This document shows, one piece after another, positions 15,670 through 64,000 of a stretch of 64,000 nt of DNA; positions within the stretch are counted from its first letter, which is position 1; each line of letters opens with the position of its first letter. This DNA is from a virus. A program made the translations under genes and the position numbers. The DNA is taken from the IMG/VR virus record IMGVR_UViG_3300037993_001242, positions 135,099-199,098 of that record; one strand, 5' to 3'. The notes beneath the pieces are model-generated. The model had not been told where the DNA came from, ran no database searches, and worked only from the letters and a program-made list of their open reading frames with translations.

Positions 15670-15989
15670 ACATTTTTAGGCCCGATGTATTGAATACTGA
15701 TGACGTAAGACACGTCATCCTTGGGCACCAAATCCGGTCGATTGAGCGCGTCAATGGCATTGAAAAACTGTTCCACCCAAATCGTTTCATCGATTTCATC
15801 GTCAGGTTCAGTCCCAGCGGGCGGCGCAAGCGGCACGATCACAACCGCAGTATATCCTTCTTCCGGCGTGGGCAAGTCAACGGTGACGTGGTACTCGTAC
15901 AGCAGGTTGATGTGCTGCAAATAGTCCTTCGGACGAAGTTCGTCCGGGCCAACTTCCAGCAACCGGTTTACAATGTTGTGCGCATTCAT
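15666..15989 (-). CDS. LLE-leader / DPDE protein (107 aa)
   Basis: MNAHNIVNRLLEVGPDELRPKDY. Confidence 0.8.
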   Translation of the reverse strand: MNAHNIVNRLLEVGPDELRPKDYLQHINLLYEYHVTVDLPTPEEGYTAVVIVPLAPPAGTEPDDEIDETIWVEQFFNAIDALNRPDLVPKDDVSYVISIQYIGPKNV

Positions 15990-21980: not shown

Positions 21981-22283
21981 TTAGCTACCATCGTTGGTGC
22001 CTTCGATCTGCCGGATGGCTTCGACCGCCGACATGTGCGGTTTCACTTCGTCTTTGAGCACAACGTGGTCTTCCCAAAACATCTTCTTGCGAAACCGCGT
22101 TGTCCTGAATTGCTCGGACAAAATCGTCAACGCGGCTTTGGCCATCCATTCCTCGGTATACACCAGTGGCCCTTCGTCGTTGCCCATCCAGCACTTGTCC
22201 CGCGTGTCCCATATCCCGTATTTGGCCAGTTGTGCATGGGTCGCCGCTTTAAATTCCTGACGTGATCCTTCTTCAGGCAGCAT
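21981..22283 (-). CDS. PExG-tag family protein (dispersed member)
   Basis: MLPEEGSRQEFKAATH. Confidence 0.75.
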   Translation of the reverse strand: MLPEEGSRQEFKAATHAQLAKYGIWDTRDKCWMGNDEGPLVYTEEWMAKAALTILSEQFRTTRFRKKMFWEDHVVLKDEVKPHMSAVEAIRQIEGTNDGS

Positions 22284-22286
22284 AGC

Positions 22287-22550
22287 TCAGTGACGACTAT
22301 AAAAGAATGGATCGTATTTTTCCAGATCAACTCCGCACAATACCGCCCATTCCTTGACGTGGGGCATCCAGTCGAGATCGTACGTTGATCCCGCCGGGTC
22401 GTAATCAACGCAGGTTTCCTTCACGTGCGACCGGTTGAACATGGCCTCTGCCAGCGCTTTACGCAGCAGTTGAACCTCGTTGACCAGCAACACAGCATCT
22501 TCTGGGGTAACTTCAGTCATCGGCTCCTCCAAAACAGCAAACGCCGCCAT
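22287..22550 (-). CDS. Hypothetical protein (start possibly 22520)
   Basis: Tiles the run. Confidence 0.55.
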   Translation of the reverse strand: MAAFAVLEEPMTEVTPEDAVLLVNEVQLLRKALAEAMFNRSHVKETCVDYDPAGSTYDLDWMPHVKEWAVLCGVDLEKYDPFFYSRH

Positions 22551-23029
22551 CTGCTTTCCTGTTTCACACCCAAAAAGCGCTCAACCGCAGGCATGGGATT
22601 CACCCACTTTTTCCGCTCAATTGGAATCAGAGGGCACTCTGTTTTGTTCAGGTGTCCGTGTTCATAGCCCCAAGCAAGCCACGCATCATCGGCGTCAGCG
22701 ACGGTATACTTTGCAAAGCCACCTTCGACCTCCGGCTTATAGGGCGATTCCTTGACGATGTCCATTAACAGCAGCATGACGGCCATGCTGGAGTAGCAGT
22801 GATTTACCCGCTTGTTGTACATCCATTGAAAAATACCCGGCAGGGCCATCCGACCGTACTGCATGATCTCCGCATACGTCGTGGAACAATGGCGCATGTG
22901 CCCGGCCAATGAACAAAAGCCGGTGCTTTCCTCGTGCTGGCGCACCAAATCCATGATGTAGTTTTTATCTACATCCTGCGCCAAAACTGCCCGTTTAAAA
23001 TTGCGGGCTGTGCCTTCTTCGGGAATCAT
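22517..23029 (-). CDS. PExG-tag family protein (dispersed member)
   Basis: MIPEEGTARNFKRAVL. Confidence 0.8.
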   Translation of the reverse strand: MIPEEGTARNFKRAVLAQDVDKNYIMDLVRQHEESTGFCSLAGHMRHCSTTYAEIMQYGRMALPGIFQWMYNKRVNHCYSSMAVMLLLMDIVKESPYKPEVEGGFAKYTVADADDAWLAWGYEHGHLNKTECPLIPIERKKWVNPMPAVERFLGVKQESRWRRLLFWRSR

Positions 23030-23663: not shown

Positions 23664-24053
23664 TCATTTACCTTCAAGAACGGGGCCGGGCCGCCAGTTC
23701 GGGTTCAATGCTTGGCGTACACCCGGCAACGGGGTTCGGTGCGTTTTACCACCTGATCTATACCAGTGGCAGCTACCTTCAACCGGCTGGACGATGGTTT
23801 CTGCTTCAACAATGCGGTCGCAGTAAAACCAGCCCTTCGTGTCCGCCAAAGCCGCCTGACCGTAATGCGCGCCTCGATAGCGCTGGCCATGGTTACGGCA
23901 CGTGGTACACATCTCAAACGTCCCCGGAACCGCATAGAGCGCCAGCACGGCCCGTTTAAGCTCGTGCTTCGATCCTTCCTCCGGCAACATTACCGCAGGA
24001 GCAATGCCAAGCCTGCCAAGGGCATCGATGACTTTGTGGAGCAGCGTCGTCAA
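23664..24053 (-). CDS. PExG-tag family protein, tag after a 20-aa extension
   Basis: VMLPEEGSKHELKRAVL followed by CTTC. Confidence 0.7.
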   Translation of the reverse strand: MTTLLHKVIDALGRLGIAPAVMLPEEGSKHELKRAVLALYAVPGTFEMCTTCRNHGQRYRGAHYGQAALADTKGWFYCDRIVEAETIVQPVEGSCHWYRSGGKTHRTPLPGVRQALNPNWRPGPVLEGK

Positions 24054-30312: not shown

Positions 30313-30516
30313 ATGAGCACACCAACAACAAAAACAGCCGGTATGCCGGTGACTTTGGTACCCAATCCCGGTTCAGCCGACGACGCCAGCAGCGGAGCCG
30401 ATACCCACATCAACTATGCGGGGCCACCAACGGAAAATCCACCGGTAACGCTGGCATACATCGTCGTAGACACAAATGGCCAACAATGGCAGTACTACCA
30501 AGGAGGCTGGAACTGA
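30313..30516 (+). CDS. Small PVTLVP-motif protein (67 aa)
   Basis: GMPVTLVPNPGS; C-terminal VVDTNGQQWQYYQGGWN. Confidence 0.65.
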   Translation: MSTPTTKTAGMPVTLVPNPGSADDASSGADTHINYAGPPTENPPVTLAYIVVDTNGQQWQYYQGGWN

Positions 30517-30520
30517 TTTT

Positions 30521-32766: not shown

Positions 32767-33348
32767 TTAAGTCCAGTCCCAGCCACACAGAGGACAGATT
32801 TCCAAAAAAGTGTATACCGTCTCCGTAAAGAAAGCTCCTTCTTCCTGCGACCGCCGTCCATAACTGATCTGCTTGCAGCACGGACACTGACGCGTCTCCA
32901 CACGGCGCTTGTTCCGCCGGAGGACTCGCCAGTCGGTGATTAAGTTGCACGATCTGCGCCGTATCATATTGGCCATCCGCTGCTCGACGCTGTCCATAAT
33001 CCACCAAGCACCAGCTTCTTTGGCTCGGTCATAGTACGTCCGAAATTCTTCAAAAATAACGGCCCGTCTGTTTTCACCGTGGCGGTGAGAGACCAGCAAC
33101 AGCCACACGCAGCCAAATTGAACAATACTGACTGGAAGACGCATCCACGTCGTCCATGTGCTGACACCATAGACAAAATCAACGAGCATCAGGAGAAGTT
33201 GATCCGCACCCATGCTCCCGTTGAGCATGACGCCCCACTTGACGATTGGGTTGTCCAGCCAGTGCAATTCGCGATAACGTGGTATCGGCGGCAATGCGTG
33301 CAGCAGCGCGTGCTTAAAATCGCTGGCGCTTCCTTCTTCCGGGATCAT
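32767..33348 (-). CDS. PExG-tag family membrane protein (dispersed member)
   Basis: MIPEEGSASDFKHALL; two hydrophobic segments; C-terminal CPCC/CPLC. Confidence 0.75.
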   Translation of the reverse strand: MIPEEGSASDFKHALLHALPPIPRYRELHWLDNPIVKWGVMLNGSMGADQLLLMLVDFVYGVSTWTTWMRLPVSIVQFGCVWLLLVSHRHGENRRAVIFEEFRTYYDRAKEAGAWWIMDSVEQRMANMIRRRSCNLITDWRVLRRNKRRVETRQCPCCKQISYGRRSQEEGAFFTETVYTFLEICPLCGWDWT

Positions 33349-37748: not shown

Positions 37749-37990
37749 TCAAATACCTGCGGATACCAGCGCTTCAACAACTCCATGATGGCTGGGCTGT
37801 TTCTTGCGTCTTCAATTTCCCGGCGCACTGTCGGTTCGACTTCAGTCCACCGGCGCTGGGCGTCAATCATAGCTACAGGTGGCGGCGCTCCCGTTTTGGC
37901 GGGCTGAGTCATATTGGTCGTGTATACGTGCTTGAGAAGATCAAGCAACTTGTCCATCCATGGCTCCCATTTGGTCGTGCTCTCGTTCAT
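37745..37990 (-). CDS. WEPWM-family paralogue 4
   Basis: KWEPWMDKLL...PPVAMIDAQRRW. Confidence 0.7.
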   Translation of the reverse strand: MNESTTKWEPWMDKLLDLLKHVYTTNMTQPAKTGAPPPVAMIDAQRRWTEVEPTVRREIEDARNSPAIMELLKRWYPQVFE

Positions 37991-38271
37991 ATAAACATGA
38001 CTTTACGCGTCTCCGACAGGTCGTGCCAAGGCTCGTCCGTCCGGCGGATCAAACCTTCCTCGGCGTGTTGCAGCCATGCTTCCATATAATACGACGTTGA
38101 TGTATACAGATCAAGGGTGATAATGTGAACCCAGTAGCCAGAGACGGCCAAAACCGCCATTGGATCACGATGATTGGGAATTACGTAGGAATAACCCTCC
38201 ACCGGCAGCCCCGCCGCCGCCCGCAGCAGACACGCTTTGAAATCGTAGCGCGTGCCACTTTCGGGGATCAT
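37987..38271 (-). CDS. PExG-tag family protein (dispersed member; ORF is open upstream to 38385)
   Basis: MIPESGTRYDFKACLL. Confidence 0.7.
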   Translation of the reverse strand: MIPESGTRYDFKACLLRAAAGLPVEGYSYVIPNHRDPMAVLAVSGYWVHIITLDLYTSTSYYMEAWLQHAEEGLIRRTDEPWHDLSETRKVMFI

Positions 38272-38748: not shown

Positions 38749-40485
38749 TTACTCTCCGTTTCCATTTTGGCTGGCGCGTCCGTCGATAGCGCCAGTGGTT
38801 TGGTATTGGTGAACCCGTTGTACCGCCTCGCCCAGAAGCTGCTCAGACGTGGGCTTATGTTCGCTCTCGACCATCTCAATGTGTTTCTTGAGCGCTTTGG
38901 CCGCCAGCACCAGATCGTTGGCCGTGACCTTGCCCATGATTTCAGTGCCTTCGCGATGAATCGCAAAGCGCTTGGCTTTCTGCACCGCCTCGGCAATGAA
39001 CGAGGGCACAAACCCGGCCAGTTCTTTGCCCGCCTCAGTCAGGTCGATGTCCTTGACCAGCAGCGAATGGCCGTCATCGTTCCGGGCAAACATCTGCACA
39101 AACCGAACCGAGGTTTTGCCATCCGGCGCATCCAAACTGATGACCGTGTCGATGCGCCCGGCGCGTAGAAAAGCCGGTTCGATGTCTTCGGGCTTGTTGG
39201 TCGTCAGGATAGTGATGATCGGCTTGTCCTTGGTGTCCACGCCGTCGATGGTGTTCAGGATTTCGTTGATGTCACCGTCGCGGTCGCCGCTCATGACCTG
39301 ATCGATGTCCTCGGCGAACACCACCGCCGGTGCGTACAGTTGCGCCAAGACCAGCGCATCAGCAAGCTGCTCGGCATTCTTGAGGTAAATAAACGTCCAA
39401 CCATTGCGGACGCATTTGGAGGCCAGCACGCGAGCCGCCAACGTCTTGCCGGTGCCGTACGGCCCCATCAACAGGCAGCCGTGCTTGAGTGGGATGTTGT
39501 TGCGCAAGCACGCCTCGGTTTTCTCGATCAAGGTGAAAACGTTGGCCCGCAGTTCAAAGTCCGTCACGTCGTTCAAGATCAGCATATTTTCATCCACGTT
39601 CTTCACGTCGATGAAATTGGGCGCGTCGTTAATGGGATTAAAGCGCCGGTCTTCGTCGATGAACGACAGGTCAATGGTGATCGCCTGCCCTTTGTAAATG
39701 CTCTGCTCCTTGAGCCGCTGGCGCGCCAATGCGATGATACGCTTGACCTCTGGCTCAAACTTGCGCTTGATCTCGCCACGCAGTACCAAGGCGGCATCCT
39801 TGGCCAGTTCAGTATCGAAGAAGCCACCTTCCCACTTCGGGATGGCGATCCGGCCCAGCGGAGCCGTCTCGAAACCGCCGTTGGCCAGCGGCACCTGAAC
39901 CATCATTGGTGGCTCTTTTTCGCCGAAAAAGCCGGGCGTGTCTTCCAAGCTGGCAAAGCCGTATACTTCCTTGAGCGCCCGCATCACCGCCACGATGCCA
40001 TCCAGCGGATAGCAAGCAATTTTGTCGAAGATGGCGACTTTCTTTTCCTCGGCCTCTTCCTGCCGCTTGAGCCAAATATGCGCTTCGGGGTAGGACATTC
40101 CTTCGGGAATGATGATCTGGGTGCCTTCGCGGAGAATGCGCACTTCCTTGAAGGTCGTACCGTCGTTGGCTTCGTCATCCGCTGATTTACGGAAGGGTGT
40201 TGGTGTAAGGGTTGAAGGTTGTACGTCGGCCATGTTCATAGATTTTTTGGTGTAGTTGCCGGGTGGCATAGATTTGTCTGGTGCTTTCAGTTGTTTGGTT
40301 TCAGTGGGTTTAGGTTCTTCAAGGAGTTCGATGTCCATGGGCCGTATCCCTGCGGCCATACCCAAGCGAAGATGGAGCCTTTCAGCCAGTATGTGCATCA
40401 CTTGGCTGAATGCCTCCATTTCTTCGATGGGAACCTGCGTGGAAAACGTTTGGCCCGAAGGCAACTGAACAAATACTTGTGGCAT
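38749..40485 (-). CDS. AAA+ ATPase (single AAA module, long N-terminal region)
   Basis: GCLLMGPYGTGKT, VFAEDID, ILNTIDG, LTTNKP, FLRAGRID. Confidence 0.9.
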   Translation of the reverse strand: MPQVFVQLPSGQTFSTQVPIEEMEAFSQVMHILAERLHLRLGMAAGIRPMDIELLEEPKPTETKQLKAPDKSMPPGNYTKKSMNMADVQPSTLTPTPFRKSADDEANDGTTFKEVRILREGTQIIIPEGMSYPEAHIWLKRQEEAEEKKVAIFDKIACYPLDGIVAVMRALKEVYGFASLEDTPGFFGEKEPPMMVQVPLANGGFETAPLGRIAIPKWEGGFFDTELAKDAALVLRGEIKRKFEPEVKRIIALARQRLKEQSIYKGQAITIDLSFIDEDRRFNPINDAPNFIDVKNVDENMLILNDVTDFELRANVFTLIEKTEACLRNNIPLKHGCLLMGPYGTGKTLAARVLASKCVRNGWTFIYLKNAEQLADALVLAQLYAPAVVFAEDIDQVMSGDRDGDINEILNTIDGVDTKDKPIITILTTNKPEDIEPAFLRAGRIDTVISLDAPDGKTSVRFVQMFARNDDGHSLLVKDIDLTEAGKELAGFVPSFIAEAVQKAKRFAIHREGTEIMGKVTANDLVLAAKALKKHIEMVESEHKPTSEQLLGEAVQRVHQYQTTGAIDGRASQNGNGE

Positions 40486-49599: not shown

Positions 49600-49857
49600 C
49601 TAATATAGCCGTCTGGTCTGGTGGCCACCAATACCGCTGAATACAATATCTCTGGCCCATCGCTGAAACTGAGGATTGCTGCTGTTGATACACTGGTTGC
49701 AGACGACATCGGCAGTGTTCCCATTTTTACTGTGCGCTCTGGCTTCCAGATGAGTCAGCGGCTCAAAGCAGATGGCGCAATGCCACGCACCCAATGCTCG
49801 ATGCACGGAGCGTTTGAAATCATTCCGGCTCCCCTCTTCTATGAACTGCTGGAACAT
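49600..49857 (-). CDS. PExG-tag family zinc-ribbon protein (dispersed member)
   Basis: FIEEGSRNDFKRSVH; CAIC...CNQC. Confidence 0.7.
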   Translation of the reverse strand: MFQQFIEEGSRNDFKRSVHRALGAWHCAICFEPLTHLEARAHSKNGNTADVVCNQCINSSNPQFQRWARDIVFSGIGGHQTRRLY

Positions 49858-51044: not shown

Positions 51045-54000
51045 ACTGGATTTAATCAGGGTTATTTTTGTCAATGTCAGCCTCGATCCACAGCCATGCA
51101 GCACCGATCAGCATGGCGATTGAACCCGTAACGCACGTCATTATCTTCCAGTCCTTGAAGAACATGACAACGATAAACGCCGCAAACCCAAGGCAAGCGG
51201 CAACCAGCAGGCCGATGCCGACCCACTGGTAGATTTTAAGTATTTGTCGAGCAGTGGAGCTTTTCATAGTATCACCGGCGTCTACGTTTTATTCTTTTGG
51301 CCCGATTCTTCCGGTACTTCGGGATGTATGCAAGAACACAACGCTTGAAATCCTGTCGCGTTCCTTCCTCGACAAGCGCCAGTACGGGCAGACGCGCCAG
51401 TTTACCCATTTTTCTTCGGCTGTGGTTTCTTGGTCGGCGTCTCATTCGTCAAGTCGTACACCATGAAGTCGTCCGCCTGAATATCCTTGAGCAACGCCAC
51501 CAGCGACAGGCGCATTGACCGCTTGTTCATGCGTGGCGTACTAAATGCCAACGTGCGCCGCCCGCGCCGGAAACGCCAGCGAAAATCGCAGCCTTGTTTA
51601 AATAATTCAAGACGCAGCATGTTTCAAATACTCCTCCATGGACATTGTCCGCTCACATACTTTGCACTCCACCGTGTCGATGGTCTTGCGGCTCCATTCG
51701 CAGGTATGGGGCGCGTCCATGTTCTCTACTTGCGTGGAACCACAGTGCTCGCACGGCTTGGTGCCCGTGCGCTGCATACACCAGATACATTTAAGCCGGG
51801 GCATCGGTGGTATGGGTTTGATGTTTAAGCGCCAGAAACGCCTCGTTCTGTTCGTCGATCCGCTCGAACTCCAGCACCATGAACGCGGCGGCGCGCAGCA
51901 CGTGCTTCTGGGCGTCGAACCGCTCCGGGTGCCAGTATTGCTTCGGCCACGGCCAACCGGCGTGGCAAAAGCCTTCTGGCAGCGGGCCGAACCGCTGAAT
52001 TACGACGGCGCAATCCAGATGGGTCTTGGCGGCGCGAATGTACTCGTTGTGGTTCCGTTGCAACTGGTCGATGCCGGTCGCCCGAAGTCCGTCGGCTTCC
52101 GCTTGGATTATGTCTGTGGTTAGGGTCATGTTTTTCCTTTCTTAAATCGATGGTCAGGGACATACGTATCCTCGTGATCTTTAGTTCGACATCAATTAAA
52201 CCCTTCGATGAATTTACGCATTTCCATCGGGGTGCTGTTGAGACCTCCCAGCAACAGGATCGTGCCGAGTTCCAACGCGGGGTGATTTTCGGTTGCAGGG
52301 TCTTTTCGCATGTCGCTGACCATGCTTGCCCAAGCTTGGCTCGTCTCTCCCATGTCACAGTATTCGAGAGCGCGTTTCTTACACCACACCAAATGTTGTG
52401 CGCGTGTTGATGTCGAGCCAACCGGTGCATGGATTATCTTTTTGGCCGTGGACAACTCGTTATACCGGGTCATAAGCTCGTCGTACAGCGGCACCAGCGA
52501 GGGGTCGTCAGTGGATTGCAGGCCGCGCAGCGCATCGCCCAAGGATGCGAGATCATCGCGATTGCAGGCCAGCGCCCGGTCTCGGCGTATACGGTCATGT
52601 TCCGTCATGCTTGTCCTCCTCTTTCTTCATTTCCGGTTTAGTCGCCAGCCAGCGCACGATCTGTTCACATGCGGATTCGAGCGTGGTGTACCGGCAGCGA
52701 TCCAGAAAGTCCTCGTTCCGGCTGCTGGGCATTGGCTCGTACTCCCAACCGCCTTCCTTGTTGAGCACCGAACCGGCGCACACCACGGCCCACCGGCGCA
52801 CACTGTCCTCCGTCGAGCGCTCCTCGATGGTCACCCGGTCATAACCGACCTCGCTCAACATCGGAATGCGGTAAGCTTTGGGTATCAACTGCTCCGTCAA
52901 TTCTTTGGCCGTGGGTACTTTCATAAATTATTGTTTGGACAAACGGTCGTCTGAGACACACCAACCAACTAATAAGACCGCTAAGGCTATGGTGTTGAGG
53001 GCGAACAAAACTCCAAAACCTGCCCAGCCTCCTTGGGGCTGCCCTCCCGCTAAAAAGCCTATGGAACATAAGAGGTCTGCCATAAACAACGGCGTCACTA
53101 AAAAATATCTTTATCATATCGTCCAGCGGTTCATTTCGTTATTTTTTAATGGGCGCAACTTCCACCCGGACAAAATCACTCAAACCGATTTCAGCAAAGC
53201 ACGGGCAGAGCAACCCGTCAATCACGCCGTGCGCTTCGCTCGTAGGCGGGATGCCGACAACCTCGCGGTGGCAATTCGGACACCTATAAATATAACGGAC
53301 ACCAAGCTCCGACTTGGGCTTCAACTCAACCGACGGCAACAGCCGGGTTGGCACGTCGTAGCACTCGCGAACCTCACCGCAGACTTCGCACGGCCCCACG
53401 GACTTGGCCATGGAGATCGGCCAGTCCGCTGCTTTCCGGCATGGATCACAGTAAAACATATCTCAATCGCCGTCGGTGCTAATCCAAAGCATAACCCACT
53501 TGCTCATTTGTGTATACGCTTTTTTGGCAGCAGCTTTTTCAGGAACTCCAACTCGGCTCTGGCCGCTGCTCTAAACTTCTTGGAATTGCGCCCATAATCA
53601 AAATAAGCAACTTCTGCTGTGCGATAGGGTGTGTCGGCGCAGCCCGTCCGACCTGTTTTTTGCTGCACCGGGCAGCCGACACAACTGAAAGCTGCATTAT
53701 TAAACAAGTGGCACAGCGCACAGTTTCCGGGGCCGATGCCCTCGTATCGCTGTGTTTTGCCAGTAGCCAGCCGACGCCAATGGGTGATGACCTCCTTCAG
53801 AGCGTTCAAAGTTGTTGATGTCATATTGTTTTTACCTGACCAGCGGAAATTTGGTTTTGCGGTACTGCTTGCGGTATTTGATCTGGAATTGCCGCAGGCG
53901 ACCAATGGCCTGTTCAACGAATTCGTCCATCTCGTCGGGCGGCACATAGTTAAATTTATGGGCGTTGACCAGCAGGCGGTCGCTGATGCCGCCGATGATG

Positions 54001-57177: not shown

Positions 57178-57420
57178 TCAATCGCGCAGCCGACCGCTAA
57201 GCAGAGGCGCACGAGGTATGTCGTCATCATAAAGCTGATGACGGCGCATCGGTGCAGCCATCCTCCAGTGATGTGTACCACATATCGGGCATTCCCAGAA
57301 CGACCTGATGTCCCTGTTTTTGAGGGCCACAACAAAATGTCCCCACACGCACATGTCCGTGACCACTGTATTCAGCAGGCAGTGCTTGAACTCTTTGGGA
57401 TTGCCTGCTTCAGGGATCAT
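57178..57420 (-). CDS. PExG-tag array member, zinc ribbon
   Basis: MIPEAGNPKEFKHCLL; CVWGH...CPIC. Confidence 0.8.
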   Translation of the reverse strand: MIPEAGNPKEFKHCLLNTVVTDMCVWGHFVVALKNRDIRSFWECPICGTHHWRMAAPMRRHQLYDDDIPRAPLLSGRLRD

Positions 57421-57673
57421 CGGGTTGAATGATTTTCAAATAGGCCATTTCCAGCCACGCCTGCAAGCTCATTGTTTGGGAAAGTTTATTTCCGTATTCA
57501 AGCATCACCACACCCCGACTGAAAACCTTGACCTGCACCTTCTCTAACCATTGATTTTCCAAGCCATTGCCATAAAACAACAGATAATAGCCGCCCACTT
57601 CAGGGCGCAGACCGGCACTGAAATCAAGCACCGCCCGCTTAAATTCGGCTTTGGTTCCGTCTTCGGGGATCAT
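57410..57673 (-). CDS. PExG-tag array member, Cys-free body
   Basis: MIPEDGTKAEFKRAVL. Confidence 0.8.
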   Translation of the reverse strand: MIPEDGTKAEFKRAVLDFSAGLRPEVGGYYLLFYGNGLENQWLEKVQVKVFSRGVVMLEYGNKLSQTMSLQAWLEMAYLKIIQPDDP

Positions 57674-57891
57674 TGTCGTACTGGCCCAGTGCCACAAATA
57701 TCAACAGTCTCATAAGCATGACAGTGCTCACACCAAAGCAATACGCCGATTTCAATGCCGCTCATCTCCTCCCAGAACAGGTCGTCAAGACTCAGCGGTT
57801 TGGGATGGCCACAGGCTTCACAGCGCTGTATCCTCACGTTTTCAAGCACACCGCGCTTGAACTCTTTAAAGGAGCCATCTTCGGGGATCAT
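57670..57891 (-). CDS. PExG-tag array member, zinc ribbon
   Basis: MIPEDGSFKEFKRGVL; CEAC...CEHC. Confidence 0.8.
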   Translation of the reverse strand: MIPEDGSFKEFKRGVLENVRIQRCEACGHPKPLSLDDLFWEEMSGIEIGVLLWCEHCHAYETVDICGTGPVRQ

Positions 57892-58099
57892 AATCGGGTG
57901 CAAGGATTTCAGGTATCAACGCCAATACATCGCGTAGTTTTCCGACGCAATCAGGACAATAGTGCCGATCCCACGAGTAGCTTGAGCCGATGACGCCCGG
58001 CACAAACCACTTGCCACACTGGCATTGGCACCGGCGCACTTCGCGCAACACCACGGCCTTGAACTCTTTGGGACTGCCCGTTTCAGGAATCTGGATCAT
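57866..58099 (-). CDS. PExG-tag array member, zinc ribbon
   Basis: MIQIPETGSPKEFKAVVL; CQCQC...CPDC. Confidence 0.8.
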   Translation of the reverse strand: MIQIPETGSPKEFKAVVLREVRRCQCQCGKWFVPGVIGSSYSWDRHYCPDCVGKLRDVLALIPEILAPDYDPRRWLL

Positions 58100-58295
58100 T
58101 ATAGTACAATCTCAAATGCTCAATGCTCGGATGCGGTAGATAGCCCCACACACCGCACAACGGACACTGATAAGGATAACGCTGATCCCAGTGGTTCATG
58201 GCAACAAACGGATGTCCCTTGGGGCAGTGCTCGACCACGACCACGTCCAGCACTATCCGTTTGAACTCCTGCCTATGACCGGTTTCCGGGATCAT
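58083..58295 (-). CDS. PExG-tag array member, zinc ribbon
   Basis: MIPETGHRQEFKRIVL; CPKGH...CPLC. Confidence 0.8.
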   Translation of the reverse strand: MIPETGHRQEFKRIVLDVVVVEHCPKGHPFVAMNHWDQRYPYQCPLCGVWGYLPHPSIEHLRLYYNDPDS

Positions 58296-58537
58296 ACGCC
58301 ACAGGTATCAACCGTGATGACGCTGATACGCGGATAGGCCCTTTCATTGCATCGGTGGCACAGCCTTTCGGGAAACGCTTTAATGAGATACTTCCAATGG
58401 CTGGAGTCGAGTAAACTTGAATTCAGCCACTCCGCGTCGTATGTCTCTCCGCAGCCGCAAGCGGCGCAGGCGTAACCTTGCACCACTTCCAGCACCGCCC
58501 GCTTAAATTCCTGTTTGCTGCCGGTTTCCGGGATCAT
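58292..58537 (-). CDS. PExG-tag array member, zinc ribbon
   Basis: MIPETGSKQEFKRAVL; CAAC...CHRC. Confidence 0.8.
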   Translation of the reverse strand: MIPETGSKQEFKRAVLEVVQGYACAACGCGETYDAEWLNSSLLDSSHWKYLIKAFPERLCHRCNERAYPRISVITVDTCGV

Positions 58538-58782
58538 GTGGTGAGCAGCCGTTGGCATTCGATTGACATCCATTCGGATTCTCTTTGTTGGTTACCGTTG
58601 CGATAATCGGCCCAGCAAACGGGACACCAACGGATGTCAAGTTCGTCGGTGTTGAGATCGTACCACTCTGTCCAATCTGCCGGGATGGTAAAACCTCTGC
58701 CGCAATAGACACAGTGCCAGACCCGCACCGTCGCCAAGACCGTGTGCTTGAACTCGACCCGGCTGCCGGTTTCAATTATCAT
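58534..58782 (-). CDS. PExG-tag array member, zinc ribbon
   Basis: MIIETGSRVEFKHTVL; CVYC...CPVC. Confidence 0.8.
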   Translation of the reverse strand: MIIETGSRVEFKHTVLATVRVWHCVYCGRGFTIPADWTEWYDLNTDELDIRWCPVCWADYRNGNQQRESEWMSIECQRLLTT

Positions 58783-58990
58783 TGTCAGCCTCAAAAAGCA
58801 TCTCGTGACAGGCAAGGATGCAGAAATCGCAGCCCCATAAATGCCCGTATTCCTTCGCCGCTGCAACCCAATTCATGTCTGGGGGCGGGCGGGCCACAAC
58901 GATGTGATGGCCGTTAGCGCACGTCCACGCGTGCAGTTCGGCCAGCACGTAGCGCTTGAATTCTTCTTTTGAGCCGTATTCGATGACCAC
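58772..58990 (-). CDS. PExG-tag array member, zinc ribbon
   Basis: VIEYGSKEEFKRYVL; CANGH...CDFC. Confidence 0.75.
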   Translation of the reverse strand: MVIEYGSKEEFKRYVLAELHAWTCANGHHIVVARPPPDMNWVAAAKEYGHLWGCDFCILACHEMLFEADNDN

Positions 58991-59207
58991 GCTCGATCCT
59001 CAGTTCGGCCTGCAAGCCCCACCATCGATGCTTGCAGAGGTTACAGTGCCACAACAATAGCCCGTGATAAGTTTTGGGCGGCTTCTCATTTTTGCGCACC
59101 CACTCAAATTCCGGTATGATCTGATGTCCATCGCTGCACGTCCACGCCCAAAGGTCGTTTAAGACCCACTGCTTAAACTCTTGTCTGGTGCCGTTTTCGG
59201 GGATCAT
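58914..59207 (-). CDS. PExG-tag array member, zinc ribbon
   Basis: MIPENGTRQEFKQWVL; CSDGH...CNLC. Confidence 0.8.
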   Translation of the reverse strand: MIPENGTRQEFKQWVLNDLWAWTCSDGHQIIPEFEWVRKNEKPPKTYHGLLLWHCNLCKHRWWGLQAELRIERGHRIRLKRRIQALRAGRTARVDVR

Positions 59208-59480
59208 TTAATTTTCCGGTTCAATGCCGTACATCGCCTGCAAATCCTGCTCTAACTCCACCGTCCATCCTGTGGACAACAGCGCTCGATGAACCAACCG
59301 GCCATTGGCGTCTCGCCATGCTTTGAACCGGCAGCTACAGGTCGGACATTGAAAGATCAACGTATCGTCGTAGCCGGATTCAAACGCCACGAACCGATGG
59401 CCCGCATTACAGCGGTCAAGCTCCACGTTTGACAAAACGCAGCGCTTGAAATCAGAAAAGGTTCCAGTTTCAGGAATCAT
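59208..59480 (-). CDS. PExG-tag array member, zinc ribbon
   Basis: MIPETGTFSDFKRCVL; CNAGH...CPTC. Confidence 0.8.
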   Translation of the reverse strand: MIPETGTFSDFKRCVLSNVELDRCNAGHRFVAFESGYDDTLIFQCPTCSCRFKAWRDANGRLVHRALLSTGWTVELEQDLQAMYGIEPEN

Positions 59481-59772
59481 CTTGGGCATCAATCCAACGT
59501 CCACCCTGCTGCTCCGCTTCCCGTGCCGGGACGGACGGCCACACGGAAATCGGGTCACGATCCACCAACATATCTTCGACCGCCGTACAATAAATTATCG
59601 TTTGCGGCGCACTCCACGCACTCATGCGCGAACAGCATTCCGGGCAAAACCCGATGTGCTTGTCGCCGACGCCGATGACATTCATCATCCCACAGGCCAT
59701 GCACGCCACGGCCCGCAATTCCGTCAGAACCGAATGCTTAAATTCAACTTTGGTTCCGTGTTCGGGGATCAT
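59470..59772 (-). CDS. PExG-tag array member, zinc ribbon
   Basis: MIPEHGTKVEFKHSVL; CMAC...CPEC. Confidence 0.8.
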   Translation of the reverse strand: MIPEHGTKVEFKHSVLTELRAVACMACGMMNVIGVGDKHIGFCPECCSRMSAWSAPQTIIYCTAVEDMLVDRDPISVWPSVPAREAEQQGGRWIDAQDDS

Positions 59773-59980
59773 GGGCGCGCACTCCATTCAACCGATCCAA
59801 ATAGTAGTCCAAGGCCGTCGACATGCCGTGGATGATCTCATAGCAGGATGGGCAAAAAGGTTCGATGGCTTCGAGGTTCTGCCGGACAAACGGCTGGCCG
59901 CAGTTGCAACACTGGGTCAAGGCCACGTTGCCCAACAACGAGCGTTTGCATTCGGCTCTGGTTCCGTGTTCAGGTATCAT
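59744..59980 (-). CDS. PExG-tag array member, zinc ribbon
   Basis: MIPEHGTRAECKRSLL; CCNC...CPSC. Confidence 0.8.
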   Translation of the reverse strand: MIPEHGTRAECKRSLLGNVALTQCCNCGQPFVRQNLEAIEPFCPSCYEIIHGMSTALDYYLDRLNGVRAHDPRTRNQS

Positions 59981-60243
59981 CGGCGCAAAGCTTTTTTCCA
60001 GTTGTTGAGTAGCACTTTTACCTGAGCAACCGGCACATTCGTAACGTTGATGTTGTATACAGTGCGCTCACCCAAGCGCACCGTGCTGATCGTTTTATCG
60101 AGCGTGCAACCACAGCAAAAATGCAATTCCGCCCGCGCCGGGTCAAGCACGCTGTAGTGGCCACAAGCCAGACACCAGCCCAGTTCCACGTCTTCAAGAA
60201 CCGTGTGCTTGAACTCTTTTGGGCTGCCGGTTTCAGGAATCAT
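59977..60243 (-). CDS. PExG-tag array member, zinc ribbon
   Basis: MIPETGSPKEFKHTVL; CLAC...CCGC. Confidence 0.8.
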   Translation of the reverse strand: MIPETGSPKEFKHTVLEDVELGWCLACGHYSVLDPARAELHFCCGCTLDKTISTVRLGERTVYNINVTNVPVAQVKVLLNNWKKALRR

Positions 60244-60287
60244 ACCGTAAACACTCCATTATTACTGACCGTGTAGGTCATGATAAT

Positions 60288-60506
60288 TTAATTGACGGGC
60301 TGCACCGGATACATCCGAACGCAGACGTTGTACCGGTTATGATCGATGCAGCGCGGGCAGTACATCGCCAGCGTGCCGATCCAGCCGCCGTCGGGATGAT
60401 CGATGTACTCCGCCACTTCCACGTGGCCGCAAGGGTAGCGCTGATGCTCGACCGCTTTCAGCAGGCAGCGCTTAAACTCTTTTTTAGTGCCGTTTTCGAC
60501 GATCAT
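60288..60506 (-). CDS. PExG-tag array member, zinc ribbon
   Basis: MIVENGTKKEFKRCLL; PCGH...CPRC. Confidence 0.8.
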   Translation of the reverse strand: MIVENGTKKEFKRCLLKAVEHQRYPCGHVEVAEYIDHPDGGWIGTLAMYCPRCIDHNRYNVCVRMYPVQPVN

Positions 60507-60759
60507 GCTTTTTGTGCCACTCCTCACAATCGATGCAGAGGCACCCGTTGGAAGCCATCTCGAATTCGTGACAGACGCGCAGACATTCCCCGCACTGAAC
60601 ATATCGTTCTGCATCAGGCCCACAGATTGGACAGCGGCCAGAATCTTTGCGCTCGTATTCGGGCAGGTACCAGTCCCAACACGAAACGCAGCAGTACTTG
60701 AGCACTTCGTTCAACACGCAATGCTTGAAGTCTTCTCTGGAGCCAGCTTCGATGAACAT
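60484..60759 (-). CDS. PExG-tag array member, double zinc ribbon
   Basis: MFIEAGSREDFKHCVL; CVSC, CPIC, CGEC, CIDC. Confidence 0.8.
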   Translation of the reverse strand: MFIEAGSREDFKHCVLNEVLKYCCVSCWDWYLPEYERKDSGRCPICGPDAERYVQCGECLRVCHEFEMASNGCLCIDCEEWHKKHDRRKRH

Positions 60760-60985
60760 GCTCTTCAAAAAGAACCGGTGTCCACCTTCCTCCACCGTAG
60801 CACATCATTAAAACGCACTGCTTCAATTCCTTGGCCTCATGTAACGGGCACAGGTCAGATTTGCGCATGGGCTGGTGGTACTCCGCCGGAAGAAACGAGC
60901 AGCCACATCGGGGCCAACGGAGCACCATGACGTTGTCCAAGACCCAGTGCTTGAACTCTTTGGAATTGCCGGTTTCGGGGATCAT
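60614..60985 (-). CDS. PExG-tag array member
   Basis: MIPETGNSKEFKHWVL; RCGC...CPLH; 3' end overlaps the next member by about 145 nt. Confidence 0.75.
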   Translation of the reverse strand: MIPETGNSKEFKHWVLDNVMVLRWPRCGCSFLPAEYHQPMRKSDLCPLHEAKELKQCVLMMCYGGGRWTPVLFEEHVHRSWLQRRLQALRVERSAQVLLRFVLGLVPARIRAQRFWPLSNLWA

Positions 60986-61272
60986 TGCCAGCCTCGCACA
61001 ATCAGCCCAAAGTCCTCCTCTTCCAAGAACCGCGATAACGTCATGACGCCGTGGCCCACATCCACCGAAAGATTGGGCGTAATTTTAATCCAACCTCCGT
61101 CCTTGTACAGGTCTATCCCCTTTATTTGAAAGCGGAAAATCACCCTTTCGGGCGCGGCACAGTCTGCATACAATGTATACTTGTCCCCCACATGAGGAAA
61201 GGGCCGCACCAGCGCCAAAACACACCGCTTAAAGTCGGTCGGGCTGCCTTCTTCAATCGTGCTCCCATTCAT
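60982..61272 (-). CDS. PExG-tag array member, SH3-like body
   Basis: TIEEGSPTDFKRCVL; PHVGDKYTL. Confidence 0.75.
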   Translation of the reverse strand: MNGSTIEEGSPTDFKRCVLALVRPFPHVGDKYTLYADCAAPERVIFRFQIKGIDLYKDGGWIKITPNLSVDVGHGVMTLSRFLEEEDFGLIVRGWQ

Positions 61273-61456
61273 ACCATTGAGTCACGAGGAACACCCCACT
61301 TTTGATGCAGTTGGGGCATATCCACTCCAAAGCAGGTGTATTGACTGGCGGCTCGAAGACAGGCCATTTCGTCTGGCAGGCAATGCACCAGCGCGGCTGA
61401 AAGAGCGCGAGCACGCTCCGCTTCAATTCTTGTTTGGTCACTTTCTCGTTGAGCAT
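61253..61456 (-). CDS. PExG-tag array member (degenerate tag), zinc ribbon
   Basis: MLNEKVTKQELKRSVL; CIAC...CPNC. Confidence 0.7.
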   Translation of the reverse strand: MLNEKVTKQELKRSVLALFQPRWCIACQTKWPVFEPPVNTPALEWICPNCIKSGVFLVTQWYEWEHD

Positions 61457-61673
61457 TTCTCAAAATGGCGTACAGGACTTCGCTTTTGGCTGCCCGACAT
61501 TCATCGCAATCCGTGTTGTCCAAGCCAGTCGTGGTGCCATAAGCATACTCCAATACGTCCAGTGCCACGCCGCTGGGAACGTACACGTGTCCGCAACGGT
61601 AAACGTAGGTGCAGACCGTGTCCAACACACAGCGCTTGAACTGTTGTTTGGTTCCAGTTTCCAATATCACCAT
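61269..61673 (-). CDS. PExG-tag array member, zinc ribbon
   Basis: MVILETGTKQQFKRCVL; RCGH...CDEC; 3' end overlaps the next member by about 190 nt. Confidence 0.7.
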   Translation of the reverse strand: MVILETGTKQQFKRCVLDTVCTYVYRCGHVYVPSGVALDVLEYAYGTTTGLDNTDCDECRAAKSEVLYAILRNAQRESDQTRIEAERARALSAALVHCLPDEMACLRAASQYTCFGVDMPQLHQKWGVPRDSMV

Positions 61674-62047
61674 GAACTCCCGTATGAACGCAGGCGCGTA
61701 CAATCGCCGCAGTAACCTTCCAATCGCCCAATCGTCAGCAAATCCGCCAGCGGCTCTTTCGTGCCCCAGTTGGCCACGGTTTCGTACTGCAATATGGCTA
61801 CGTGCCCGCACTTCGTAAAGCGGATGGCCACGCGCAGCGCCTGTATGCCTCCGTAACTGTAACCTAACTGAACCATCTTCAAGCAGGCAGCGCATAGAAA
61901 CGCGATTCGGGGGAGAATATCTGGCTCAGTGTAACCCGTGTGGACACGCTCCGCCGGAAGGCACCACTGCTCGCAAATGTAGCACTTCACACCCAACGCC
62001 AACATGGCGTGTTTGAAATCCTGTGGCGTTCCGGTTTCCGGTAACAT
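61667..62047 (-). CDS. PExG-tag array member, double zinc ribbon; first gene after a promoter
   Basis: MLPETGTPQDFKHAML; CYIC, CAAC, CGH, CGDC. Confidence 0.8.
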   Translation of the reverse strand: MLPETGTPQDFKHAMLALGVKCYICEQWCLPAERVHTGYTEPDILPRIAFLCAACLKMVQLGYSYGGIQALRVAIRFTKCGHVAILQYETVANWGTKEPLADLLTIGRLEGYCGDCTRLRSYGSSW

Positions 62048-62053
62048 GCGTAT

Positions 62054-62082
62054 ACAATAAAACGCGCAGTGCCTTTTGGCAA
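62054..62082 (-). promoter_or_regulatory. Sigma70-like promoter TTGCCA-N17-TATTGT heading 20 PExG genes
   Basis: ATG 62047 lies 6 nt downstream (leaderless). Confidence 0.6.
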
Positions 62083-62091
62083 CTGCGCGTT
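62061..62091 (-). terminator. Hairpin overlapping that promoter; probable terminator of the upstream gene
   Basis: AACGCGCAGT-GCC-TTTT-GGC-A-ACTGCGCGTT, followed on the minus strand by TTATTGT. Confidence 0.55.
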
Positions 62092-62120
62092 AGTCTCCTG
62101 ACCTTTTTTCAATCCACCAG

Positions 62121-62570
62121 CTAAACGGCAAGTACCTTCTTGCCCGCTGCCGTTGGATTGAAATCGGCAAATTTTCCACCGTCCTGCTTATGCTTGCGCA
62201 GTTCCGCCGCCACAGCCTGCCCCAGCGGCGTCAGTTTGAACACCGGGTTCATGCCCGTACCCCGGTTTTCCAGCAGACCGGCCCGCTCAAAGTCCTCCGC
62301 ACAGTCCCAGTCATCGTGGCTCTTCAATTGCAGTTTGGGGTCTTTCTTGTCGAAGAACCCTTTCAACCGGCTACCATAAGTCGACTTCCATTGATGCCCA
62401 TCCGTACCCATGGGAAAATAACCGTAACCGGGATGGCGCGTGAGGTTGACCCGGAAATTCCGGCGGTGCATGTCACTGACCAGACCCTTGAAATCCACGC
62501 ACAGGGTCTCAATGAAAGCCAACAGGCTCCAGTGGTCTTTGCCAAATTCGTTGATCGATACCGACTTCAT
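62121..62570 (-). CDS. Hypothetical phage protein interrupting the PExG array
   Basis: MKSVSINEFGKDHWSLLAFIET...HDDWDCAEDF; has its own promoter. Confidence 0.7.
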   Translation of the reverse strand: MKSVSINEFGKDHWSLLAFIETLCVDFKGLVSDMHRRNFRVNLTRHPGYGYFPMGTDGHQWKSTYGSRLKGFFDKKDPKLQLKSHDDWDCAEDFERAGLLENRGTGMNPVFKLTPLGQAVAAELRKHKQDGGKFADFNPTAAGKKVLAV

Positions 62571-62576
62571 ATCCTG

Positions 62577-62605
62577 CTTGTATACAACAACCATCGAATT
62601 GTCAA
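62577..62605 (-). promoter_or_regulatory. Sigma70-like promoter TTGACA-N17-TACAAG
   Basis: GTATAC core; ATG 62570 lies 6 nt downstream. Confidence 0.6.
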
Positions 62606-62614
62606 CTTTAAATT

Positions 62615-62800
62615 TTAATGGAAGCCTTGCAAGAGCCGCGCCGTCAATCGCGGATCGCAGTAAACTTTGTTGCACTCAGGACATGTTTGTCGGGGATAGA
62701 AATCGATGAAGTGGCCCCCGCATTGACGGCAGTAATAACTCCACAGATGCTCCAGCACCCAACGCTTTGTCGACTGCTTGGTGTAAAATTCAGGAACCAT
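62615..62800 (-). CDS. PExG-tag array member (degenerate tag), zinc ribbon
   Basis: MVPEFYTKQSTKRWVL; CRQC...CPEC. Confidence 0.7.
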   Translation of the reverse strand: MVPEFYTKQSTKRWVLEHLWSYYCRQCGGHFIDFYPRQTCPECNKVYCDPRLTARLLQGFH

Positions 62801-63035
62801 TTAACAGGGGCCATCTCCATTCCGGCTGAATGTGGAAAACCTGCTGGTACTGCTGAGTGTAGTACGAGCACAACTGGATGGCTTCCGTCGCAGTCATCCG
62901 AAAACCGCACAGCCCCTTGGTCGTGCCCAGCAATTCGGGATCGTTGGTGACCCAATATCCGATCAATTTGCGCGCAGGCAAGTGAGCCAACACAGCGTGC
63001 TTGAATTCCTGCTTGGTTCCAATTTCGGGCATCAT
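62790..63035 (-). CDS. PExG-tag array member, Cys-poor body
   Basis: MMPEIGTKQEFKHAVL. Confidence 0.8.
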   Translation of the reverse strand: MMPEIGTKQEFKHAVLAHLPARKLIGYWVTNDPELLGTTKGLCGFRMTATEAIQLCSYYTQQYQQVFHIQPEWRWPLLNGS

Positions 63036-63349
63036 AATAAACCTGATCTGAATTTCCACTCGTTGGTAAGGATGTTGTGCCAGATTTCCTCGTTTTGTCG
63101 TTCGACCCGGTAAATCTTATAAAACTCCACAGCTAACAGCAACCATACGGCGGCCATTCCAATAGCCAAACAGCCACTCATGGCGGCCAACATAGGCATG
63201 ATAATTGCCACAGCACCGGTGAGCAGCAACAATGGAAACCACATGGAGCGCACAAATGACTGCTGTTTAAAGACGGGCCTGCCGGGCAGCGCAGCCAGCA
63301 CCGCCCGCTTAAATTCCTGTTTGCTGCCTTCCTCGATCAGCGCGCTCAT
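63032..63349 (-). CDS. PExG-tag array member, two-TM body
   Basis: LIEEGSKQEFKRAVL; two hydrophobic helices. Confidence 0.8.
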   Translation of the reverse strand: MSALIEEGSKQEFKRAVLAALPGRPVFKQQSFVRSMWFPLLLLTGAVAIIMPMLAAMSGCLAIGMAAVWLLLAVEFYKIYRVERQNEEIWHNILTNEWKFRSGLL

Positions 63350-63603
63350 TTGGATTTCAGTTTAAAGGTGATCTGATAATCCAGCCGCCGGGGCCGATAA
63401 ACAAAAAGGCCGTCGTCAAGATCATGGATAAAAGTGAAGGTCTGGGTGCGCTTCTTGCCGTTGTGGGACGTGGTCGTCACCGTGAGCAGCGACTTCCGGC
63501 GGTCGGGGAGGGCCTTGAGCACCGCCTGCTTGAGCGCCTGCTTCGTGCCCGTCTCCGGCAGGGATAACTTCCGCAATTTCTTGGGCGTTTTGGTTTTCAT
63601 CAT
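63346..63603 (-). CDS. PExG-tag array member with a Lys-rich N-terminal extension
   Basis: SLPETGTKQALKQAVL. Confidence 0.7.
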   Translation of the reverse strand: MMKTKTPKKLRKLSLPETGTKQALKQAVLKALPDRRKSLLTVTTTSHNGKKRTQTFTFIHDLDDGLFVYRPRRLDYQITFKLKSK

Positions 63604-64000
63604 TCAACGTCGGCAAAATGACTTCGTACCGGGCAGTGCCCATCATAACCACATCGTGCCCATTATACACGGGAGCCATGTATACACCCTCACCCGCCCA
63701 ATCCGGGGTCGCCGTCCCAGCGTAGTACATGGTCACGATCACCCGCTGATAGTCAAGATGTTCCAGCACCGCCCGCTTAAATTCCTGACGAGTGCCTTCT
63801 TCGGGGAAGTACTGCTTGAACCAGATTTTGCCGTCGGCCACGACGTATTCAGCGGCCATCTTTTCAGCCACGCGAGGCAGGTCAATTTTGGGCGTGGGCC
63901 AAAAAATCCGAAAGCCGTTAAAAACCGACGTGAACCAGTTAACCAAATGGTGCGTCATCCCCGGTTGTATCACAAATTGTATACTTGGGGTCAACTCCAA
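63422..64000 (-). CDS. PExG-tag array member with an internal tag; start uncertain or outside the window
   Basis: YFPEEGTRQEFKRAVL after an upstream segment; 3' end overlaps the next member by about 180 nt. Confidence 0.65.
   Translation of the reverse strand: MELTPSIQFVIQPGMTHHLVNWFTSVFNGFRIFWPTPKIDLPRVAEKMAAEYVVADGKIWFKQYFPEEGTRQEFKRAVLEHLDYQRVIVTMYYAGTATPDWAGEGVYMAPVYNGHDVVMMGTARYEVILPTLNDENQNAQEIAEVIPAGDGHEAGAQAGGAQGPPRPPEVAAHGDDHVPQRQEAHPDLHFYP

Follow-up and report, generated by a model that had tools for sequence, protein, structure and literature searches.

The internal proteins of the T4 head are diverse defence inhibitors that have only the capsid-targeting sequence (CTS) in common (PMC3012670). 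In T4-like phages, promoter-terminator cassettes known as PeSLs recur between small variable genes and act as points of homologous exchange, through which genes are added, deleted and swapped (PMC2839356; PMC4122927). Bacillus phage G encodes about 35 zinc-ribbon paralogues, for which a role in transcription control or DNA binding has been put forward (PMC7824862). Here, we analyse an array of 25 small genes that resembles each of these systems in part. The genes share a usually N-terminal module of about 20 residues, the PExG tag, with the pattern M-I-P-E-x-G-[ST]-x-x-[ED]-F-K-[RH]-x-V-L, joined to bodies of different kinds. The array lies in IMG/VR record IMGVR_UViG_3300037993_001242, a linear sequence of 199,098 bp with a CheckV completeness of 82%, the last 64 kb of which constitute the window analysed (positions refer to the window unless given as genome positions).

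The proteins encoded by the record include baseplate wedge proteins, a family-A DNA polymerase and an SbcC-like nuclease. Since the polymerase is just 25% identical to that of the nearest sequenced phage, we place the phage in a deep, uncultivated lineage of myovirus-like phages.

An undescribed family of tagged phage proteins

The listing of open reading frames (ORFs) and a six-frame motif scan both returned 25 consecutive tagged genes on the minus strand, from 57178 to approximately 63958, as reported in the initial annotation, which had been made from the sequence alone. A count of the tag's nucleotide core, GAR-N3-GG-N10-GAN-TTY-AAR, gave 25 occurrences across the window, exclusively on the minus strand, against 0.02 expected from shuffled sequences. 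The array had been thought to run off the window edge; instead, its first gene starts near 63958, and the genes upstream of the orthologue of this gene in relatives are untagged. The single interruption described initially stands as one untagged ORF, with its coordinates redrawn to 62121-62675. Nor is the tag confined to the array, as a profile search of the whole record found 33 copies, comprising the 25 of the array and eight elsewhere, seven of them dispersed in the window (22283, 23029, 23990, 33348, 38271, 49848 and 51379) and a single one beyond it, at genome position 52078. The proposed location at or near the N-terminus holds for most members, in which the tag begins with the initiator methionine or, in a few cases, 2-13 residues further in, but not for the first gene of the array and some fused forms elsewhere, in which it is internal.

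When the tag profile (32 positions) was searched against 1.84 billion representative proteins, 120 matches were obtained at E ≤ 0.001, all between 42 and 201 aa long and mostly with the tag at residue 1. A degenerate DNA pattern picked out 27 metagenome contigs; 24 of them contain the tag, in 98 copies altogether. Arrays were found in the relatives L018 (16 copies), L020 (10), L014 (9) and L038 (8), and a search with one protein retrieved relatives among which are contigs 157,844 bp and 240,090 bp long. Neither the tag nor the bodies gave a sequence match in Pfam, PHROG or PDB beyond sub-threshold zinc ribbons. Likewise, megablast of the array against INPHARED phages returned no match, tblastn of one member against phages gave chance matches only, and two exact-pattern scans of IMG/VR yielded zero matches (the window's own record was perhaps excluded from them). 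The body of the 193-aa member, searched by itself, retrieved four tagged orthologues besides itself and zero tag-free relatives. With named families returning nothing and the tag profile retrieving just 120 small proteins, the early impression that the architecture belongs to no recognised family was sustained, and we regard the tagged genes as a real, undescribed, clade-restricted and lineage-specific multigene set of small phage proteins.

Selection on the tag peptide

Residues E4 and K12 do not vary among 122 non-redundant members, drawn from about 25 contigs, and at least 90% of these members keep G6. The third codon positions of the tag hold only 0.03-0.6 bits, with the two-fold codons of E4 and K12 reaching 1.2 bits, one bit of which is forced. 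Between orthologues, the pooled non-synonymous divergence (dN) of the tag was 0.195, compared with a synonymous divergence (dS) of about 1.0. Near-random third positions, together with this excess of synonymous change, indicate that the peptide is what selection acts on in the tag, which agrees with the synonymous codon variation already noticed among the array genes. An extended M-I-P-E-x-G segment opens the module; from the residue pattern, we infer that T/S7-x-x-E10 then forms a helix capping box, and that F11, V15, L16 and V/L19 make up a single hydrophobic face of an amphipathic helix.

Bodies and predicted structures

Both zinc-ribbon knuckles are present in 19 of the 25 array genes, the number originally estimated; the other six lack zinc knuckles, and three of these contain no cysteine at all. 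The first knuckle is of the type C-x2-C-G or C-x2-G-H, and [WFY]-C-P-x-C follows 12-32 residues downstream. In a pattern search of the whole genome, the first cysteine fell at residue 24 in 16 of 20 zinc-type members. The 54 zinc-type proteins, collected from several phages, can be aligned as a single family in which the second knuckle never varies, and the zinc ribbon is held in this fixed register in roughly half to two thirds of the members. An SH3-like class of about 22 members is recognised by P-x-x-G-E-x-Y straight after the helix and by W...G-x-[IV]-K-F near the C-terminus. The remaining bodies form small groups, among them the 'LPARKLIGY' and 'LPDRRK' classes, a basic peptide of 45 aa and the hydrophobic protein of 193 aa. 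Clustering of the 122 members by their bodies only produced 31 groups and 48 singletons.

The bodies had been described as essentially unalignable, which does not apply to the zinc-ribbon members, aligned in register, nor to the SH3-like class, which aligns as well. The outcome that the initial annotation had named as contrary to its view, namely bodies aligning as one conventional family, is found for the half to two thirds of the members that belong to the zinc family and not for the set as a whole, whose body groups show no detectable similarity to one another.

Two members were modelled with AlphaFold2. For the 70-aa zinc member (alignment of 54 rows), the predicted local distance difference test (pLDDT) was 75.3 overall and 84-87 over residues 1-30, and the model consists of a coil (residues 1-7), a helix (8-18), four strands around both knuckles and a C-terminal helix. 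In the Cys-free member (pLDDT 77), a helix at residues 8-19 is followed by five strands. The tag helix scored 73-87 across both classes, which share a coil followed by a helix; a helix had been proposed for the tag initially. Foldseek searches of the PDB returned nothing at E ≤ 0.001 for either model: the best matches of the Cys-free model were Tudor, Hfq and SH3 folds, all weak (E 0.04-0.2), and those of the zinc model were weak zinc ribbons. The ESM Atlas yielded generic small zinc proteins only, with scores below 0.9, and no curated zinc-ribbon model matched any of the 122 members above threshold, with single sub-threshold matches at E 4e-4 to 1e-2. The models show the module joined, linker-free, to a small beta-rich domain, which is predicted to be a zinc ribbon or an SH3/Sm-like barrel. 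Together with the body classes, sequence comparison supports the view that the tag is a peptide module combined with three or more body types, namely zinc ribbons, SH3/Sm-like barrels, and membrane proteins or others.

Evolution and reshuffling of the array

For every window gene, relatives carry a separate orthologue of 46-90% identity, and the dN/dS of the bodies between orthologues is about 0.2 (range 0.06-0.43). Clustering of the bodies at E < 1e-6 placed no pair of window bodies in one similarity group. Because each gene has a conserved orthologue and no two window bodies group together, the array is best described as an old, stable set of diverged paralogues under purifying selection; the term hypervariable, initially used for the bodies, is contradicted by these orthologues and their low dN/dS.

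Comparing array content and order among relatives, as the initial annotation had advised, revealed that gene order is largely kept, with insertions and deletions, one translocation and two chimeric genes, both in L010. One chimera begins with sequence from the 59480 gene, namely its upstream region and its tag as far as TTCAAGCG, and continues with the 58990 gene's body. In the second, the tag of the 63343 gene (63032..63349) runs as far as AAGCAGGA and gives way to the body of the 63035 gene. As both crossover points fall within tag codons, they provide direct sequence evidence that these codons serve as homologous-recombination sites that reshuffle the array between phages, a role which had been suggested for the conserved 5' codons. 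Whatever the tag does as a peptide, the locus illustrates how a coding tag can double as a recombination site.

At the site occupied by the untagged ORF 62121-62675, L010 has other sequence and L014 has nothing, and we consider this ORF a replaceable insert. In the window, the 61-aa tagged gene (62615..62800) is kept apart from the ORF downstream of it by a 2-nt difference (window 62615-62680 versus L010:10990-11010), whereas L010 reads through, giving a 238-aa in-frame fusion of the tagged gene with a Cys/His-rich C-terminal part. An HNH-like motif read by eye in that part was not confirmed by Pfam.

Transcription and translation of the array

Twenty array genes lie downstream of the start at 62047. 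The predicted promoter of this unit comprises a -35 element TTGCCA (62082-62077), a 17-nt spacer and a -10 element TATTGT (62059-62054), and matches the consensus at 9 of 12 positions (10 such sites in the region, against 5.6 expected). With six bases between the -10 element and the ATG at 62047, it is reasonable to suppose that the 20-gene unit is expressed from a leaderless mRNA. The element is kept at an equal distance from the ATG in L018, L010, L020 and L038 (five lineages with the window), in the form TTGCCA/TTGCTT, 17 nt, TAWTGT, six bases, ATG, and the hairpin that overlaps it has 15 predicted pairs, with compensatory changes in 5. The leaderless promoter previously noted at 62082, ahead of 20 genes, is thus supported by sequence, spacing and hairpin conservation in five lineages.

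A separate sequence, TGTATAC followed by ATG within 1-4 nt, was counted 13 times genome-wide, where a rough estimate predicts about 1.5; its sites include window positions 62056, 34528, 8495 and 5676, and genome positions 1777, 9045, 30300, 48120, 89704 and 107861. Most copies precede plausible ORFs, and the sequence is a possible promoter element of leaderless phage genes.

At 12 of the 24 array junctions, the upstream gene ends inside the next tag, with an overlap of 4 or 11 nt (-4 or -11). The first 11 bases of the tag, ATG-ATH plus CCT-GAA, contain TGA in both other frames (ATGA and CCTGA), and a Shine-Dalgarno sequence is visible at few array starts. Since the tag start supplies TGA in both other frames, the genes behind the first of the 20-gene unit would be translated by stop-start coupling, which also fits the scarcity of Shine-Dalgarno sequences. 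The tag would then be a stop and restart junction as well, at which small genes could be added, deleted or swapped while an operon lacking ribosome-binding sites stays unbroken. Long out-of-frame overlaps of 77-188 nt occur at 61253-61673, 60484-60985, 58772-59207 and 63346-63958. For 61253-61456, which lies almost entirely within 61269-61673, L018 keeps each of the two frames open at about 60% conservation, suggesting genuine dual coding.

Features of the window

The genes and elements of the array and the dispersed members are collected in Table 1. Two further genes of the window were noted: a 681-aa protein encoded at 30476-32521 has alpha-galactosidase (Melibiase_2) and Melibiase_C matches, unusual in a phage, and a 370-aa fusion of Nudix and thymidylate kinase domains is encoded at 2643-3755.

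Table 1. Coordinates of the tagged genes and associated elements in the window.
Feature	Coordinates	Strand	Remarks
First array gene	63422..63958	-	178 aa; tag internal (YFPEEGTRQEFKRAVLEHL, tag codon 1 at 63811); body Cys-free; orthologue P0004 in L010, 83% identity
Tagged gene	63346..63603	-	Tag SLPETGTKQALKQAVL at 63564; body without Cys; L010 orthologue 89%
Tagged gene	63032..63349	-	MS-ALIEEGSKQEFKRAVL; hydrophobic body, probably two-pass membrane (read from the sequence only)
Tagged gene	62790..63035	-	MMPEIGTKQEFKHAVL; body class 'LPARKLIGY'
Tagged zinc-ribbon gene	62615..62800	-	61 aa; degenerate tag MVPEFYTKQSTKRWVL; orthologues in L010 and L014
Untagged ORF interrupting the array	62121..62675	-	184 aa; no Pfam match
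Hairpin and promoter element	62054..62092	-	Hairpin 62059-62092 overlaps sigma-70-like promoter
First gene of the 20-gene unit	61667..62047	-	Tag MLPETGTPQDFKHAML; zinc ribbon
Tagged zinc-ribbon gene	61269..61673	-	VILETGTKQQFKRCVL; 3' half overlaps next gene out of frame; long form conserved in L018
Tagged zinc-ribbon gene	61253..61456	-	Degenerate tag MLNEKVTKQELKRSVL; almost wholly inside preceding ORF, other frame
Tagged gene	60982..61272	-	MNG-STIEEGSPTDFKRCVL; SH3-like 'P-x-x-G-x-x-Y' class
Tagged zinc-type gene	60614..60985	-	123 aa; 146-nt overlap with next gene; long form also open in relative P0016
Tagged gene	60484..60759	-	MFIEAGSREDFKHCVL; 12 Cys
Tagged zinc-ribbon gene	60288..60506	-	First knuckle of Y-P-C-G-H type; L010 orthologue 80%
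Tagged zinc-ribbon gene	59977..60243	-	
Tagged zinc-ribbon gene	59744..59980	-	
Tagged zinc-ribbon gene	59470..59772	-	L010 orthologue 85%
Tagged zinc-ribbon gene	59208..59480	-	Upstream sequence and tag joined to body of 58990 gene in L010
Tagged zinc-ribbon gene	58914..59207	-	
Tagged zinc-ribbon gene	58772..58990	-	GTG start; VVIEYGSKEEFKRYVL
Tagged zinc-ribbon gene	58534..58782	-	
Tagged zinc-ribbon gene	58292..58537	-	
Tagged zinc-ribbon gene	58083..58295	-	70 aa; zinc member modelled with AlphaFold2
Tagged zinc-ribbon gene	57866..58099	-	Start MI-QIPETG...
Tagged zinc-ribbon gene	57670..57891	-	
Tagged Cys-free gene, SH3/Sm-like class	57410..57673	-	Second member modelled with AlphaFold2
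Last array gene, tagged zinc ribbon	57178..57420	-	
Dispersed member	51272..51409	-	Tag plus short basic tail
Dispersed zinc-ribbon member	49600..49857	-	
Dispersed SH3-like member	37987..38271	-	Directly downstream of AAA ATPase gene
Dispersed member	32767..33348	-	193 aa; hydrophobic middle, Cys pair at C-terminus
Dispersed member	23664..23990	-	
Dispersed member	22517..23029	-	170 aa; MIPEEGTARNFKRAVL
Dispersed member	21981..22283	-	MLPEEGSRQEFKAATH

Role of the tag

We tentatively favour the reading that the tag is a shared interaction surface or docking handle, to which we give a probability somewhat short of even, since the bodies cannot share one fold and the tag has invariant charged residues; we regard this docking idea as plausible. 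As a common handle, the tag helix would bring all members to a single partner or surface, the variable domain of each member would bind a different target, and the tagged set would constitute a toolkit for host takeover or counter-defence. The family would probably be expressed early, with the 20-gene unit transcribed from the conserved hairpin-plus-promoter. The PExG module is present on about one eighth of the small-gene complement of the phage and is conserved clade-wide; if the helix is a handle, knowing what it binds would account for some 30 orphan genes together and offer a portable tag for this phage group.

Several findings weigh against a docking handle. The helix leads directly into the first beta strand, and its distance to the first zinc ligand is constant; such a linker-free register is as compatible with an integral element of the fold as with a free handle. 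The tag does not have to lie at a free N-terminus, since it is internal in the family of the first gene and in some fusions, and it can be lost from at least one body, because the orthologue of the 38271 gene in the distant 240-kb relative (L043:7541) retains its SH3-like body with a decayed tag (LENPRASRRAYKRCLL). We infer early expression only from gene size, position and the sigma-70-like promoter. Finally, codon use in the tag is not wholly neutral: CCT, GAA, GGA and AAG are enriched, with CCT at codon 3 found 35 times against 13 expected, although the p-values are inflated since the copies are not independent.

The enrichment of CCT is also what would be expected if the DNA or RNA were selected and the peptide were a by-product, the tag being a portable junction that provides stops, a restart site and recombination homology. 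The TGA in both other frames, used at 12 of the 24 junctions, and the crossovers within the tag point the same way, but the amino acids are conserved to residue 19 with third positions near-random, tag dS is about 1.0 between orthologues, and the peptide is kept even in dispersed single copies, making such an explanation very unlikely. The tagged proteins could instead be ordinary diverged paralogues, in which the helix, as the best-conserved element of a small fold, caps or covers the beta domain and serves no shared partner, the non-zinc bodies having diverged beyond recognition or been captured by recombination at the tag. The fixed, linker-free register between tag and zinc knuckle would follow naturally, the S/T-x-x-E capping box, like the hydrophobic stripe, is a classic structural feature, the tag is conserved no better than the body between orthologues, and the zinc-ribbon expansion of Bacillus phage G is comparable in copy number, at about 35 (PMC7824862). 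What ordinary paralogy does not accommodate is the occurrence of one tag on membrane proteins, a 45-aa basic peptide and barrels, which cannot share one fold, the invariance of the charged E4 and K12 in all classes, and the lack of detectable similarity among the body groups; we judge it somewhat unlikely.

Other explanations assign the tag to a particular machine. If it were a degron, or a signal by which an unfoldase or protease recognises its substrates (for example a phage AAA ATPase or a host AAA+ protease), it would give all early effectors a common, timed turnover; AAA-family ATPase genes are located at 38749-40485 and 18943-20313, with a tagged gene directly downstream of the first, and the tag is usually N-terminal. 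Its internal occurrences and the absence of a Pfam protease domain from both ATPases speak against this, to our knowledge the tag resembles no described degron sequence, and we find the proposal improbable. The two ATPases (578 and 456 aa, respectively) have long N-terminal regions of no known family. T4-type prohead proteases follow the cleavage rule (L/I)-x-E, which residues 2-4 of the tag ([ILV]-x-E) fit, and the phage encodes such a protease of the T4 gp21 type (Peptidase_S77, E 7.5e-16; phrog_207). The tag might thus be a capsid-targeting sequence directing loading into the prohead, trimming and injection with the DNA, for which the T-even internal proteins are a precedent (PMC3012670). 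However, the sole conserved x-E precedes the helix, so cleavage would take off four residues and leave the tag in place; after the tag there is no conserved (L/I)-x-E, residue 17 being E in a minority of members; and the genes form an early-type operon rather than part of a head module. Moreover, a peptide far closer to the T4 CTS, A-K-Q-[IV]-V-x-x-L-L-E, ending in L-L-E, is encoded in the same genome, and capsid targeting by the PExG tag is quite improbable. In the third of these schemes, the tag would be a recognition or modification site like the leaders of ribosomally synthesised and post-translationally modified peptides (RiPPs), acted upon by the SPASM-domain radical S-adenosylmethionine (SAM) protein of the phage (24.7 bits, cut-off 21.5). 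The invariant E and K of the tag and the many Cys-rich bodies would suit an enzyme substrate, yet the enzyme gene (genome 92301-94424) is about 100 kb from the array (genome 192-199 kb); no PqqD-like domain was found in the genome at E ≤ 1, such domains being able to diverge past detection; and six of the 25 array genes lack zinc knuckles, three of them any Cys. The Cys pattern is, besides, that of the classic [WFY]-C-P-x-C zinc knuckle and the members reach 60-190 aa, so that we consider modification very improbable. Both capsid targeting and radical-SAM modification are less likely than a docking or structural helix.

The radical SAM/SPASM gene itself (L005:16301-18424) is split by an intein (matches to Hint and Intein_splicing), and the next ORF, extending to genome position 95161 just upstream of the baseplate genes, is radical-SAM-like with a C-x3-C-x2-C motif. 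The A-K-Q peptide, in its full form M-x-A-K-Q-[IV]-V-x-x-L-L-E and often followed by V-G-P-D-E, occupies the N-terminus of at least 12 ORFs on both strands, for example at window position 15983 (minus strand) and genome positions 42204, 46216, 50348, 59873, 60099, 61679, 104265 and 107445; it is unrelated to the PExG tag and ends in an L-x-E site. The PExG helix might act as an address label read by one dedicated phage or host machine and form, with the A-K-Q peptide, a two-label sorting system directing proteins to separate destinations in the course of infection. We think this rather unlikely; if true, it would amount to an undescribed layer of protein sorting for dozens of small proteins in a clade of large soil phages.

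Comparison with known systems

The tag has a close formal parallel in the T-even CTS, likewise a short constant N-terminal peptide on diverse small phage proteins, in phages with a prohead protease of the same type. Unlike the CTS, the PExG tag shows no sequence likeness to it and has no cleavage site after the helix; it is present in 33 copies rather than about three, its bodies are mostly held in a fixed structural register, its genes belong to an early-type operon, and the more CTS-like peptide of this genome is the A-K-Q tag. RiPP and radical-SAM systems, where a single enzyme acts on many precursors that have a leader in common, also place a constant N-terminus on many diverse, often Cys-rich products, and a radical SAM/SPASM gene is present here, but the enzyme is unlinked to the array, no recognition domain was found in the genome, and the PExG bodies are domains, folded and 60-190 aa long, that bear zinc knuckles or, in some members, have no Cys.

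The hairpin-plus-promoter at 62054-62092 has the same composite look as the PeSL cassettes, from which the array differs in that a single copy heads the 20-gene unit and both mapped exchanges fall in the coding tag rather than in an intergenic motif. Like phage G, the present phage is very large and carries tens of small zinc-ribbon paralogues, but the two expansions are non-homologous: searched against phage G, the family profile gave one 19-bit match, covering positions 22-78 (the ribbon only), with internal stops and no tag. The nearest analogues, namely the CTS, the PeSL cassettes and the phage G expansion, work in a similar manner, but none of them belongs to the present family.

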